64,000 nucleotides of DNA from Candidatus Poribacteria bacterium (GTDB lineage Bacteria > Poribacteria > WGA-4E > UBA9662). Numbering within the stretch: the first letter of the stretch is position 1; each line of letters starts with the position of its first letter. This document shows, piece by piece, positions 12,012-17,823 of the stretch. A program made the translations under genes and the position numbers. Under the pieces are notes generated by a model. It ran no database searches. It was not told the DNA's origin and saw only the letters and a list, made by a program, of their open reading frames with translations. The stretch spans positions 42,859-106,858 of the forward strand of contig JAYZAL010000019.1 in NCBI GenBank assembly GCA_036339735.1, given 5' to 3'.

Positions 12012-12659
12012 CTACTGTAAAAGTATTCTACTAATTTGACTAGGGTTAAACTTATTTCCTTTTCCATTTGTATATCCCTTTTCTTCTAATAAATCGGCAA
12101 TTTTCCTCAGTGAAAAGCTCTTCTTTCTTAAACACTTAACTTTTTCAACAAGTACCGTATCTATTTCTTTATAAGACTTTCTACCACCAACTTTCCCTCT
12201 TCCACGTAGATCTAAATTACCTTCCGTAACACTTTTCCTACGTCTACGTCTACGTCCAGTTTCCAGTTTTAGCCCAGGTTTTTGGTAGATGCTAATAATT
12301 TGCAAAAGTTGCTGAGTTTCTATATCTAGTTGGTCCTCACCAGTAGCGTAAATTAAAAAAAGCCCGTATTCTCTCAAAAGATTGGTAGCTAGTCCACGCT
12401 CTAAGGGATTTGGACAGAAAACCTTTGGGCTATGACAGACTATTGTTGAAATGTTCTTTTCTTCGGTGAGTTGTAGTAAGTTACGAAATGTCTTTCTCTG
12501 TACTACAGCAACATTTTCCGCATCACGATCGATAAGATGTTTTCCTTGGGAAGTCCAACCGTGTTGCCTAAGGAATTTGTTAATCTGACGTTTTTGATCA
12601 AGTGGAATTTCGTTTCCTTGTGCTAAGGGATGGTAAACGATAACTTGTTTATTAGCCAT
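12012..12659 (-). CDS. Serine recombinase/resolvase-like protein lacking catalytic residues
   Basis: Resolvase-like spacing (VIVY..Q..I..F...G...D...R..F..LL); GGRK hinge; C-terminal SLRKIADLLEEKGY..F..SQISRIL; ATG 12659 has AAGGA upstream. Confidence 0.65.
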   Translation of the reverse strand: MANKQVIVYHPLAQGNEIPLDQKRQINKFLRQHGWTSQGKHLIDRDAENVAVVQRKTFRNLLQLTEEKNISTIVCHSPKVFCPNPLERGLATNLLREYGLFLIYATGEDQLDIETQQLLQIISIYQKPGLKLETGRRRRRRKSVTEGNLDLRGRGKVGGRKSYKEIDTVLVEKVKCLRKKSFSLRKIADLLEEKGYTNGKGNKFNPSQISRILLQ

Positions 12660-12741
12660 GTTGAATCTATCCTTACGGTTTTCTACCGACATATGGATAC
12701 GACAACAACAAGTAAAAGGTTTCAGAAAAAGTTTCATATAT

Positions 12742-14005: not shown

Positions 14006-16300
14006 TTGATTAGTGTAAAAAATAAAAGATTATTTATCATATTTCTACTGTCATCAGTGATTGCCCTTGAAACCTATTCTAGTGAAATAAGGGGGAGAGT
14101 TCTTCGCCAAGGTTCACAAGAACTGGTTAGTGGAGTAATTGTGAAAGTTTTGGGAACGGATCAAAAATTTATAACCGATGATCAGGGAGAATTTGAAATA
14201 ACTGAACTACCAACTGGAACTTATCAATTAACCTTGACAAGATTCCGTTTTCGTTCAAAAACAATTGAAGTCTTGGTACTTGACGATCAACCCCTCGATT
14301 TAGACGTTCGGCTAGAAAGAATCGATTTCATCTTCGACGAAATAGTTGTGAGGGGGCAGCTTTTAACCGAATCGGTCAGTCGTCAAAGTGTGACTGGATT
14401 AGAAATAAAGCGTATACCGGGTGCTGGTGGAGATGCGTTGAGAGCTATCCAAGCTTTACCAGGTATCAAGGCTGGTGCAGATTTCGGAGGTCAACTTTAT
14501 GTCCGTGGTGGTGGACCAGAAGATAATCAGATCTATTTTGATCGTTATCCCTTGGCTAATGCTTATCATTTCGGAGGTTTAGTTTCAACTGTAAGTTCTG
14601 AAATTCTACAACGGATTGATATCTATGCTGGTGGATTTGGAGCTGAATATGGTCAGGATTCGCAGGCAATAATAGATATTTATTCGCGACCTGGTAATCG
14701 TAAGAACTTCAGTGGCAAAGTGAATTTAAATATTCTTTATGCTGAAGGACTGATAGAAGGTCCACTAGGGGAATCAGGGTCTTGGTATTTTGCAGGTCGT
14801 CGTAGTTATTTTGACCTTTTTCCGTTAGAAAGAGTAATAACGGTTATAACAGCATTCCCTAGATTCTGGGATTATCAAACACGATTTAACTACGAAATAA
14901 ACGAGAAATACCAAATAGATTTTACAGCATTTGCAGCTGATGATTTTGCAGAATTGGCTTTTACAGAAGAACAGCAAGATGAAGAAGAACTAAGAGGTGC
15001 CTTATACATAAAGAATTCGGCACATGTTCAAGGCTTCCACCTCCGTGCTTTGCTTACCCCACGCCTAACCTACGATTTTAATCTTTCTCACAACAAACAA
15101 TTAGTAAATTTCAAGATTGGTCAAGGATTCTTCCTTCGTATACAACCTGACGTGTATGATGTTAGACATGATGTAGTATATGAAATTTCGCCCAATGTAC
15201 GTTTAGAAACAGGTTTGTTAAATTCAATTGGTGACGTTGTCGTTCAGCTGTTTTTTCCTAATCCTCCGGAAGAGGGAGATCCGAATTACGATTTTTTAGA
15301 AGCCGAAAAGAATAGAGTTGATACACAACAGGAAGATTATCAAGTGGAAGGCTACGTTCAAACACGTTTTACTCTTGGGGAATACCTATCCTTTGCATTA
15401 GGAACTCGAGTCGATTATTCTGCAGATTTAACAGCTCAGCCAACGCCTCAACCACGTTTAAGTTTTAATTTAACAATGCCAGGATTACCACAATTAAGAT
15501 TAGCTTACGGCCGTTATATGCAAACACCGCAGCCACCTCAGTTTTTTGAACCTGGGGGGAATCCAGAACTTGAGGAAAGTCTCTCAGACCATTTTATCCT
15601 AGAAATCGAAAGAGCTTTTGAAAATGGTACAGTGCTCAAGGCTGCTGGTTATCGTAAGCAGTTGGATAAACAGATTGAACCTGATCCTGAGGAAAATCCA
15701 GTAAAAAATAAGAATTACCTCAATATTGGAGAAGGTTACGCACAAGGTGTCGAATTCTTACTCCAATATCGTCAAGGAGATCGATTTTTCGGTTGGTTGA
15801 GTTATGCAAGGTCTGTTTCCAAAAGAAGGGACGATCCAGATCAAGATTACCGATTTTATTCCTATGACCAAACACATATTGCAACTATCATCGCCAGCTA
15901 CAAATTTACCAAGACATTTGAGATTGGAGGAAGATGGCAGTATGCCACGGGAAACCCCTACACACCATTAACCTGTGAAGAAAATATTAGCAATCCATGT
16001 TACGAAAATATTATCAGTCCGAGAGATGGAAAAACTAGAAAAGTACCTCTCTATGGATCAATAAATTCTTTCCGTGTAGAACCATTTCATCGTCTCGATG
16101 TGAGAATCAGCAAAAATTTTGTTTTTGATACTTGGCAAATTGGAACCTACCTAGAATTAATAAATGCCTATAATCGAAAAAATGTCCTTCAGTTTAGCTA
16201 TGACGACGAGTATGAACGCGACAAGGATGGAGAAGTGAAGAAAGACATAGTAGGACAGTTACCATTGCTACCTTATTTCGGAGTAATCATTGAGTTTTAA
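14006..16300 (+). CDS. TonB-dependent receptor with N-terminal carboxypeptidase-regulatory-like domain
   Basis: Signal peptide; TDxxGxFxIxxLPxGxY; plug LPGI..LYVRGG..YHFGG..GGFGAEYG; RLDVR..YLELINAYN; C-terminal Phe. Confidence 0.9.
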   Translation: MISVKNKRLFIIFLLSSVIALETYSSEIRGRVLRQGSQELVSGVIVKVLGTDQKFITDDQGEFEITELPTGTYQLTLTRFRFRSKTIEVLVLDDQPLDLDVRLERIDFIFDEIVVRGQLLTESVSRQSVTGLEIKRIPGAGGDALRAIQALPGIKAGADFGGQLYVRGGGPEDNQIYFDRYPLANAYHFGGLVSTVSSEILQRIDIYAGGFGAEYGQDSQAIIDIYSRPGNRKNFSGKVNLNILYAEGLIEGPLGESGSWYFAGRRSYFDLFPLERVITVITAFPRFWDYQTRFNYEINEKYQIDFTAFAADDFAELAFTEEQQDEEELRGALYIKNSAHVQGFHLRALLTPRLTYDFNLSHNKQLVNFKIGQGFFLRIQPDVYDVRHDVVYEISPNVRLETGLLNSIGDVVVQLFFPNPPEEGDPNYDFLEAEKNRVDTQQEDYQVEGYVQTRFTLGEYLSFALGTRVDYSADLTAQPTPQPRLSFNLTMPGLPQLRLAYGRYMQTPQPPQFFEPGGNPELEESLSDHFILEIERAFENGTVLKAAGYRKQLDKQIEPDPEENPVKNKNYLNIGEGYAQGVEFLLQYRQGDRFFGWLSYARSVSKRRDDPDQDYRFYSYDQTHIATIIASYKFTKTFEIGGRWQYATGNPYTPLTCEENISNPCYENIISPRDGKTRKVPLYGSINSFRVEPFHRLDVRISKNFVFDTWQIGTYLELINAYNRKNVLQFSYDDEYERDKDGEVKKDIVGQLPLLPYFGVIIEF

Positions 16301-16704
16301 TGGCTAAATTAACGTCGAGCAGACTAGTTTCCCGAATAACCTTTCTTTTTCTTTCATTTCAAATTTTTTGTTTGCTCTCCTGTTCTGTGTTTGGTGGAAA
16401 TTCATGTGGGGGGTTAGAAGATTTGGGTCAGTCTGCCCCAAATGATTGCTGCCCTTATCATACATCCAATTCCACAGAAAAGTGTTGTTGGAAAACTGTA
16501 GTTATTACAGATCAAAAAAAGCCTCTTAAAATCTCTACGTCTGGTAACCAAAAAGGGTCTACATTTTTAGCATCTAGTCAAAGTGTGTTGGAGAGACAAA
16601 AGCTTGAGGGTCAAATTTGTTTTGTTTTTGTTTTGATTCCTCATATTTCTTCAAAAGAATCACTATCCTTACCAAATCGATCGCCTCCTATCTCCATAAT
16701 TTGA
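16300..16704 (+). CDS. Cys-rich leader protein with C-terminal RSPP (DUF2946/CruR-like putative arrest peptide)
   Basis: TAATG coupling to the receptor; hydrophobic N-terminus; CLLSC, SC, CCPYH, KCC; ends NRSPPISII. Confidence 0.7.
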   Translation: MAKLTSSRLVSRITFLFLSFQIFCLLSCSVFGGNSCGGLEDLGQSAPNDCCPYHTSNSTEKCCWKTVVITDQKKPLKISTSGNQKGSTFLASSQSVLERQKLEGQICFVFVLIPHISSKESLSLPNRSPPISII

Positions 16705-16763
16705 GTTTTGTTGATGAGTAAAATGAAAATTATGAAAAAACGACCTAAGCTATTATGGAGATA
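16689..16763 (+). promoter_or_regulatory. Anti-SD/SD stem (translational attenuator)
   Basis: TATCTCCATAAT (16689-16700) is the exact reverse complement of ATTATGGAGATA (16752-16763), which contains the GGAG SD of ATG 16768. Confidence 0.72.
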
Positions 16764-16767
16764 ATAA

Positions 16768-17823
16768 ATGAAAGATAGAAAAAAGTGGATCTTGTTGGCA
16801 ATATTGTTTTTTATTTTAAATTCGATACCATATGTCATTGCTCAAGATGCTTGAGGTGCCTGAAGTAACCCCATAATCCCTGAAATGGGGCCGAGCCGTG
16901 AGCTCGATATAGAAACGAAGAAAAAATTTCGATTCACTTTTAACGTCACACGTTCTTTCAATGCAGAAGGTGGACATAGTGAAACAGGCGGATTGACAAC
17001 CGATGGTCGACTAATCGAAATTGGAAACCATTGGCATCACGTGTCTATGTCAATGAGCCGTTTTAATTTAGGACTGCATTACCAATTAAATCCTCGAACT
17101 AAGCTAGCACTAGTCTTACCATATAGTATTAAAAATCAGTCAGCTGAAATTGAATGGGAAGCCTCAAACCCAAGTGTGAGTGACCAGGATGCAGCTATCC
17201 GGAATGGTTATATCCATCATAGAGATGAAACATATCGTGGGTTTGAAGATCTGAATTTAACGACTAACTACCACTGGAATGGGTTTACATCTATAAAAAA
17301 CGACAGAATTACTCTGTCTGCTGGGTTGTCTATACCAACGGGTAAAATTGAACCTGATCCATATAAGCTCGGCGACGTAGGAAAAAAACATTTACATCTG
17401 CAGTTTGGTACAGGAACACTAACTCCAAGTTTCCAAGTTATCTACATATTGCCAGTAAACGATTTGCTGTCGGTACAATCTCGGTTATCATTTCGACGTC
17501 CCTTCTACGAAAACAAGTATAGTTTTCTGTCTCCTCCAGAAACAAGTACCTATTTTGGTATAGCATTAAAAGTCTCGAATATCCTGAGATTACATGGGTC
17601 TTGGATGGTATTTAGGCAAGGATTTGGGTATTGGGATGGAAATAGAGATCGAAATACTGGTATGCAAATGCATGCTTTACAATTGGGAACAAACACAACA
17701 ATTGGTCGAAAAACCCCTTTAAATATTAGCGTAATTGTACCTATCCATCAACAAATGCTTAGTACGGGGGATACATTCGAGCATGGTATTCTATTGTCGT
17801 CTAGTGTTTCTCATGTCTTTTAA
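16768..17823 (+). CDS. Putative selenoprotein (UxxU) outer-membrane beta-barrel channel, COG4313/MetA-pathway-like, His-rich
   Basis: GGAG+ATG 16768; MKDRKKWILLAILFFILNSIPYVIAQDA-TGA(16852)-G-A-TGA(16861)-SNPIIPE in frame with the 16885 ORF; GLSIPTG..LQFGTG; terminal Phe. Confidence 0.75.
16869..16906 (+). promoter_or_regulatory. Candidate bacterial SECIS hairpin(s)
   Basis: CCCCAT-10nt-ATGGGG (16869-16890) and CGAGC-CGTGA-GCTCG (16892-16906) directly 3' of the two UGAs. Confidence 0.5.

Follow-up and report, generated by a model that had tools for sequence, protein, structure and literature searches.

A predicted outer-membrane barrel with tandem selenocysteine at its mature N-terminus, hidden by gene calling in Candidatus Poribacteria

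The 2026 selenoprotein catalogue counts 119 families, a small subset of which carry two or three selenocysteine (Sec, U) residues (PMC13188914). The UxxU arrangement appears in its Table 1 solely in a Prx-like protein, in the HMA-type metal-binding protein NF041115 and in an FmdB-family protein (PMC13188914). Outer-membrane selenoproteins are represented in the catalogue by the GSU2204-family MtrB/PioB-like barrel (NF041027) and by a TonB-dependent receptor with an FCYXU motif (NF049945) (PMC13188914). A different group of outer-membrane proteins, the COG4313 channels, is implicated in the uptake of hydrophobic molecules, and in one of them, Pput2725, about 14 N-terminal residues preceding strand 1 are described as occluding the barrel from the periplasmic side (PMC4493636). 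Here we analysed a 64,000-nucleotide stretch of DNA from a Candidatus Poribacteria bacterium (assembly GCA_036339735.1, contig JAYZAL010000019.1, positions 42,859 to 106,858 of the forward strand; hereafter, the window). Judging from sequence, its gene at 16768-17823 very probably encodes a secreted selenoprotein, in which both of two UGA codons, 9 nt apart, would be recoded through SelA, SelB and SelD together with two RNA hairpins.

This predicted protein shares with the known UxxU selenoproteins the two Sec in CxxC spacing, the existence of Cys homologues and the presence of downstream stem-loops (PMC13188914, PMC13582414). As far as these sources describe them, however, the known UxxU proteins have other folds and are cytoplasmic or soluble, whereas here the pair would begin at residue four of the mature chain of a membrane barrel. 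Similarly, the NF041027 and NF049945 proteins have Sec in an outer-membrane beta-barrel, but they are listed with a single Sec and represent barrel families other than this one (PMC13188914). Neither of these two models matches the window protein or 10 diverse relatives, and the TonB-dependent receptor that neighbours the gene does not match NF049945 either. The HMA-type model NF041115 matches a single relative (P0031), and there solely the fused C-terminal HMA domain outside the barrel. The barrel family is absent from Table 1 of the 119-family catalogue, which likewise lists no selenoprotein family with a PF13557-type domain (PMC13188914). A full-text literature search returned no description of a double-Sec barrel family, although supplementary survey tables could hold an unnamed candidate. 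In the literature searched, Poribacteria and selenoproteins were linked by one hydrogenase survey listing the phylum, and by nothing else. The combination of tandem Sec at the mature N-terminus, a predicted outer-membrane barrel and a very wide spread that gene calling has nevertheless hidden is unusual.

A mechanical list of open reading frames (ORFs) gives the gene as 16885-17823, with 312 residues and without a signal peptide. The original prediction, made from the letters and this list, proposed that the true N-terminus lies upstream in the same frame: a GGAG followed by an ATG at 16768, a signal peptide ending VIA/QDA, and then TGA GGT GCC TGA, read as two Sec codons rather than as two independent nonsense mutations. 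All of these elements were found where they had been placed (Table 1), and the upstream frame indeed supplies the signal peptide that the listed ORF lacks. The two TGA codons are separated by GGT GCC, and the codons for S-N-P-I-I-P-E then lead in the same frame to the Met at 16885. The predicted mature N-terminus therefore reads Q-D-A-Sec-Gly-Ala-Sec-Ser-Asn-Pro. The architecture of the full coding sequence is also present at 30 of 30 loci from relatives, and an equivalent in-frame N-terminus was seen at every homologous locus examined.

Table 1. Positions in the window of the predicted selenoprotein gene, its RNA hairpins and the two genes upstream of it
Feature	Coordinates	Strand	Details
Shine-Dalgarno-like GGAG	16757..16760	+	7 nt 5' of the start codon; read from sequence
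Full predicted selenoprotein coding sequence	16768..17823	+	351 residues when TGA is translated as U, with U29 and U32; stop codon 17821-17823
Predicted signal peptide, 25 residues	16768..16842	+	Basic start, hydrophobic core, V-I-A end; cleavage site inferred
First candidate Sec codon (UGA), residue 29	16852..16854	+	TGA in 109/152 distinct homologues, TGC/TGT (Cys) in 42, Gly in 1
Second candidate Sec codon (UGA), residue 32	16861..16863	+	TGA in 135/152 distinct homologues; Cys solely in a single CxxC clade of 17
Hairpin 1, 6 bp	16869..16890	+	16869-16874 pairs with 16885-16890
Hairpin 1, short register, 4 bp, loop GAAAU	16878-16881 with 16887-16890	+	Alternative pairing
Hairpin 2, 5 bp, loop CGUGA	16892..16906	+	16892-16896 pairs with 16902-16906; loop begins 33 nt 3' of the second UGA
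Predicted 12-stranded beta-barrel, residues ~54-350	16927..17817	+	AlphaFold2 model; His-rich conserved loops
TonB-dependent receptor	14006..16300	+	Directly upstream; matches Pfam Plug and CarboxypepD_reg
Small Cys-rich putative lipoprotein, 134 aa	16300..16704	+	Between the TonB-dependent receptor and the selenoprotein gene

We then compared the motif across relatives from Candidatus Poribacteria genomes and from metagenomes, whose GC content spans 0.29-0.72. The genome-locus scan kept the best 80 of 272 confirmed relatives, and these 80 came from Candidatus Poribacteria or from entries named 'uncultured bacterium'; the metagenome scan, seeded with distant GC-rich members, kept the best 80 of 469. 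Across the 152 distinct homologues compared in all, the motif is UxxU in 109, CxxU in 25, CxxC in 17 and GxxU in one. Both positions are thus occupied by TGA or Cys codons, with the single exception of a Gly at the first position of one metagenome sequence, and neither Trp nor Arg occurs at the motif. Among the 81 distinct Poribacteria sequences, 62 have UGAU, 14 CPAU, 3 CGAU, 1 CSAU and 1 CAAU, the second position being TGA in all 81. At each of the 30 fetched loci the signal peptide is followed directly by [U/C]-x-A-U-S-N-P (26 UGAU and 4 Cys-first). The metagenome set comprises 64 distinct sequences from the best 80 of 469 (45 UxxU, 14 CxxC, 4 CxxU and 1 GxxU). Its UxxU members are mostly UPAUSNP and have a GC content of 0.38-0.72, its CxxC members range from 0.29 to 0.51 and the whole set from 0.29 to 0.72; the N-terminus is absent at two of the metagenome loci. 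When 61 related genomes were searched in six frames, 46 of them proved to contain the gene, with 73 matches, of which 62 contain two in-frame TGAs, 8 contain one and 3, all short and partial, contain none.

To place the exchanges between Sec and Cys, a FastTree tree was built from the 152 distinct proteins with the motif itself excluded. The CxxC sequences form one clade (support 100), while CxxU requires 8 changes on the tree, of which well-supported branches impose at least 7. Selenoproteins are classically recognised by Sec and Cys replacing each other repeatedly at a conserved position while the frame is maintained, and the pattern therefore supports Sec. In addition, the copies of the barrel gene in nine relatives terminate at an ordinary TGA stop; since TGA ends the same gene in these relatives, it is not a general sense codon. 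Many Poribacteria genomes carry two or three paralogues, some of them in tandem (G045, C1:6235492-6236517 and 6238057-6239085; also G010, G034 and G037), and one paralogue group in the phylum has Cys first (CPAU).

The letters of the 5' region were also recovered independently. The stretch, or part of it, is present in 20 public runs from 14 studies, four of which were compared. A DNA contig from another study, belonging to a run that is not flagged as a possible source of the assembly, spans 16300-16938 with zero differences. A contig from a metatranscriptome library spans 16680-16985, again with zero differences, and so takes in the start codon together with the two TGAs and the two hairpins; a contig from a second RNA library, spanning 16837-17103, is unchanged at the TGAs. 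An assembly error, a concern raised with the original prediction, is thereby excluded. The RNA-library contigs leave parts of the gene uncovered and the libraries may contain DNA, so they fit a transcript running through the whole 5' part of the gene and are no proof of its expression.

The two hairpins downstream of the UGAs both fold as had been proposed. In an alignment of 30 Poribacteria sequences, the two-hairpin pairing holds in 88.3% of cells, compared with 33-55% when the 3' partners are slid by 1-3 columns. Double changes occur at 6 of 14 pairs, including 30/36 (GC 15, AU 6, UG 3), 51/57 (CG 19, UA 7) and 52/56 (GC 13, AU 10), and some of the covarying columns are third codon positions. 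Compensatory changes in hairpin 1 fall at columns 18/40, 22/36 and 30/36 of alignment A3, the first two of these in its outer register, and those in hairpin 2 affect 3 of 7 pairs.

We next asked whether the second hairpin follows the Sec codons, using 141 distinct 78-mers. A hairpin 2 of at least 5 bp is present in 100 of the 104 UxxU sequences and in all 22 of the CxxU sequences, compared with 7 of 14 CxxC sequences and not in the single GxxU sequence. A G[G/U]-type loop was seen in 89, 22, 1 and 0 of these groups, respectively; that is, in 111 of 126 Sec-coding sequences (UxxU and CxxU) versus 1 of 14 Cys-only sequences. The hairpin-1 region behaves in the same way, with a median minimum free energy (MFE) of -12.4 kcal/mol in UxxU, -12.3 kcal/mol in CxxU and -5.4 kcal/mol in CxxC sequences.

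The consensus model of a bacterial selenocysteine insertion sequence (SECIS) is given as a loop of 3-9 nt on a stem of at least 4 bp, with G in the first two loop positions, a distance of 16-37 nt from the UGA and an MFE of -7.5 kcal/mol or lower (PMC13188914). In the window, the distance of hairpin 2 fits this model for the second UGA (33 nt) and does not fit it for the first (42 nt), while the short register of hairpin 1 is within range of both UGAs, at distances of 27 nt (first) and 18 nt (second). An Rfam scan of the whole 64-kb window at gathering thresholds gave no match. The likeliest candidate for the SelB-binding element is hairpin 2, which has a G[G/U] apical loop, and hairpin 1 may belong to one compound element with it.

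A survey of UXXU hydrogenases describes the decoding of two UGAs spaced 9 nt apart as an open question (PMC13582414). We considered a division of labour in which the two registers of hairpin 1 each serve one codon, the outer the first UGA and the inner the second. The raw medians of the outer-helix duplex fit this idea (-13.1 kcal/mol in UGAU, -5.3 in CPAU and -3.0 in CAAU). Across seven independent pairs, however, 2.3-2.4 changed in the same direction, 0.3-0.6 in the opposite one and 4.1-4.4 showed no difference (sign test, p ~0.5), and the idea was set aside as unsupported. GC-rich relatives have one long hairpin 1 in place of two registers. At five GC-rich UPAU loci (L153, L178, L182, L190 and L196), the MFE fold pairs the loop region of hairpin 2 with a 5' segment that spans the first UGA and the Pro-Ala codons; within the first 72 nt from the first UGA these two segments are reverse complements, a pairing that may be selected or may be driven by codon content.

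The genome from which the window derives (4.32 Mb in 107 contigs, 92% complete) encodes the proteins needed for Sec insertion: selB (362 bits; cut-off 242), selA (579 bits; cut-off 268) and selD (359 bits, over its cut-off). The selD gene (contig C70, locus L017:1441-2520) is itself interrupted in frame by one TGA, at the canonical UxxK site, so that at least one selenoprotein of the classical type is made by this organism. The tRNA for Sec (tRNA-Sec) was found in all five relatives searched, one of them of the same genus, with 72.8-78.3 bits to RF01852. Together with TGA or Cys in the homologues and the exclusion of an assembly error, the presence of selA, selB and selD supports the original preference for Sec over two nonsense mutations.

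We then examined the remainder of the protein, which had been described as looking like a beta-barrel. An AlphaFold2 model built on a 35-sequence alignment supports this description (mean predicted local distance difference test score, pLDDT, 82.4; predicted template modelling score, pTM, 0.78), and its DSSP string contains, by our own count, 12 strands between residues 54 and 350. The best Foldseek matches of the model were FapF (5o67, E 9e-13) and the COG4313 channel Pput2725 (4rl8, E 1e-12, TM 0.74), followed by FadL and TodX. The predicted protein resembles the COG4313/PF13557 (Phenol_MetA_deg) channels, such as 4rl8, and FapF in its 12-strand barrel, its similar size and its segment before strand 1. 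It differs in that identity to 4rl8 and FapF in the Foldseek matches is just 10-12%, and the window protein alone has invariant His-rich loops and an N-terminal [U/C]xx[U/C]-SNP. By sequence, the window protein has no Pfam match at E up to 1 and no NCBIfam match, 10 diverse relatives have no NCBIfam match to the barrel, and a sequence-profile search of the PDB returned chance-level matches alone (E 0.4 or worse). PF13557 is matched by 3 of 20 distant family members (best E 6.2e-6), and the nearest ESM Atlas clusters carry it. As the window protein does not match PF13557, we regard it as a distant relative by fold and not as a member by model.

The most conserved motifs of the family are GGH, HxH, IHHRDETY, G.TE.DP..LGD.G.KHLHLQFGTGT, PFYEN, YWDG..D.NTG and GD.F, and seven His are invariant or nearly so in the family alignment. 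By the order of the strands in the model, these motifs would fall in loops on the side opposite the termini, and the fold points to a location in the outer membrane. Fusions at the C-terminus were seen among 10 family proteins scanned, one to an HMA domain (P0031) and five to a thioredoxin or redoxin domain. The fused proteins are distant members (P0031, P0092, P0093, P0100, P0129 and P0138), and the thioredoxin-fused ones are without an N-terminus in the database.

Based on the analogy with the COG4313 channels, we hypothesize that the Sec-x-x-Sec-SNP tail acts as a mobile plug at or in the periplasmic mouth of the barrel. A thiophilic metal, with copper as our leading guess, would be bound by the diselenol of the tail on its way through a lumen lined by the invariant His-rich loops, and the tail would be maintained in the reduced form by a thioredoxin-like protein of the periplasm. 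A thiophilic-metal site that needs reduction is proposed because the His-rich loops, the HMA fusion and the thioredoxin fusions all fit it. A His-lined outer-membrane channel with a metal-binding diselenol tail is thus the mechanism that we favour, tentatively. The fuller claim, that this is the first selenium-operated outer-membrane channel, with a plug whose diselenol/diselenide captures metal or latches the pore and with one compound two-hairpin element serving both UGAs, is a speculative one and on balance doubtful.

Several of our results weigh against this overall picture of a Sec-containing, metal-binding channel. The genome assembly did not yield a tRNA-Sec, whether by RF01852 or ARAGORN, by blastn with the tRNA-Sec of the same genus, or at the syntenic stretch of contig C49; the best RF01852 match in the source genome (45.2 bits, threshold 47) proved to be a tRNA-Ser. 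The Sec machinery was thus recovered in part, with SelB, SelA and SelD present and tRNA-Sec found in the five relatives but not in the organism's own assembly. ARAGORN detected just 34 tRNA genes in this assembly, with none for Cys, Glu, Ile or Lys. As tRNA loci are plainly missing, we read the lack of tRNA-Sec as assembly incompleteness, yet it remains a gap. On the RNA side, the single-sequence fold is no better than chance (MFE -15.3 kcal/mol, z = -1.45, with 18 of 200 shuffles as good), so that the significance of the hairpins comes from the comparison with relatives. Hairpin 2 alone reaches -7.1 kcal/mol, just short of the -7.5 of the SECIS model, and in most relatives its loop begins 40 nt after the second UGA, outside the 16-37 nt range. 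Moreover, the CxxC set is one clade, mostly of low GC content, and the Cys-only control therefore amounts to a single evolutionary contrast. On the protein side, the N-terminal tail is unplaced in the model (pLDDT <50 at residues 17-45), and the metal hypothesis has a thin basis, namely one HMA fusion, the His-rich loops and an analogy. Finally, among the 15 loci compared, the neighbouring genes are unconserved outside the genus and offer no functional lead.

The tail could instead be a diselenide/diselenol redox switch, served by periplasmic thioredoxin-like proteins, that gates the channel or acts on a substrate, possibly a hydrophobic one; we consider this possible but less likely than a metal site. 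The thioredoxin or redoxin domains in 5 of the 10 proteins scanned, against an HMA domain in one, speak for such a switch. TlpA-type thioredoxins, however, also serve the assembly of metal sites, and a pure switch would leave the seven conserved loop His unexplained. Further in its favour, most bacterial UxxC/CxxU selenoproteins are described as being thought redox-functional (PMC13188914), and the proposed role of COG4313 channels in hydrophobic-molecule uptake (PMC4493636) would suit such a substrate. No conserved gene for a redox partner adjoins the barrel gene at the 15 loci compared, all in Poribacteria.

The strict conservation of the loops raises another possibility, that the barrel is an outer-membrane enzyme in which the His cluster holds a catalytic metal and the Sec pair is its redox-active partner. 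Motifs such as IHHRDETY, KHLHLQFGTGT, PFYEN and YWDG..D.NTG, and the seven His, are unusually invariant for a passive channel. We nevertheless regard an enzyme as unlikely: we found no likeness to a known outer-membrane enzyme, the nearest solved folds being channels and secretion pores, and the compared loci link no substrate or pathway genes to the barrel.

A further alternative concerns the identity of the inserted residue. One or both UGAs might be read as Cys by a SECIS-dependent tRNA-ReC-like tRNA, or give a mixed product, so that the protein would be CxxC or CxxU in vivo. The survey that leaves tandem-UGA decoding open reports an enrichment of such tRNAs in genomes encoding UXXU-type hydrogenases (PMC13582414). 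In the five relatives searched, however, there is one RF01852 match over the cut-off per genome, the next-best among the matches listed scoring ~45 bits or less, and the sub-threshold matches checked in the source genome are ordinary tRNA loci according to ARAGORN (Ser, Leu, Trp and neighbours). In addition, selA and selD are intact, the latter being itself a selenoprotein gene, and the second position is never Cys in the 81 Poribacteria sequences, an absence hard to account for were UGA to stand for Cys. We therefore consider this reading very improbable.

That the TGAs are nonsense mutations, assembly errors or sense codons of a deviant code finds an echo in two database proteins called with W at the TGA positions (P0060 and P0061), yet it is refuted by the same two codons in more than 100 distinct sequences from many assemblies and in the independent DNA- and RNA-library contigs, by the conserved upstream frame and signal peptide, by the TGA stops of nine relatives, by the other genes of the window being open under table 11, and by a tRNA-Trp with anticodon CCA in an assembly with no UCA-anticodon tRNA. 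The contigs of P0060 and P0061 were evidently called with a TGA=Trp code, which masks the Sec codons in another way.

Truncation in public gene calls explains why the predicted double-Sec family has been overlooked. A search with the read-through protein retrieved 16 database proteins of 288-313 aa, all of which start after the motif and none of which has a signal peptide. The motif region is absent from 149 of 165 retrieved database proteins, some of which are fragments, and all the names of the clusters checked were 'hypothetical protein'. Since public gene calls cut almost all of the Sec forms short and remove the signal peptide, the location and the chemistry of the family have been invisible until now. 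A profile search of 1.84 billion representatives returned 535 relatives at E up to 1e-3, and the few full-length ones have Cys at both positions (for example, CPACSNP, CAGCRNP and CAACSNP).

Recognition of the family would add a large double-Sec member to the catalogue of 119 (PMC13188914), and would put selenium at the cell envelope of Poribacteria. The more than 100 natural sequence variants of the family could also serve in studies on the decoding of UGAs placed 9 nt apart. If the compound two-hairpin element is real, it would be a natural system for the question of UxxU translation, in a family found in Poribacteria and many other lineages. If the tail does bind metal or gate the pore, it would represent a new mode of outer-membrane transport.

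Finally, we looked at the genes around the barrel. Downstream of the selenoprotein gene lies a gene for a Gfo/Idh/MocA oxidoreductase, and the order TonB-dependent receptor, small lipoprotein, barrel and Gfo/Idh/MocA is common to three genomes of the genus alone among the 15 loci compared. Elsewhere in Poribacteria the neighbours are unrelated and include, for example, parts of a nucleoside-type ABC transporter and WD40 proteins. The start of the lipoprotein-like ORF overlaps the stop of the TonB-dependent receptor gene, and its end lies 64 nt before the selenoprotein gene. Its product has several conserved Cys, including two CC pairs, is weakly conserved in two other genomes of the genus and belongs to no Pfam or NCBIfam family. 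Just upstream of the TonB-dependent receptor operon, between two Gfo/Idh/MocA genes, an ORF on the reverse strand (12012-12737) encodes a resolvase N-terminal domain (E 5e-6).

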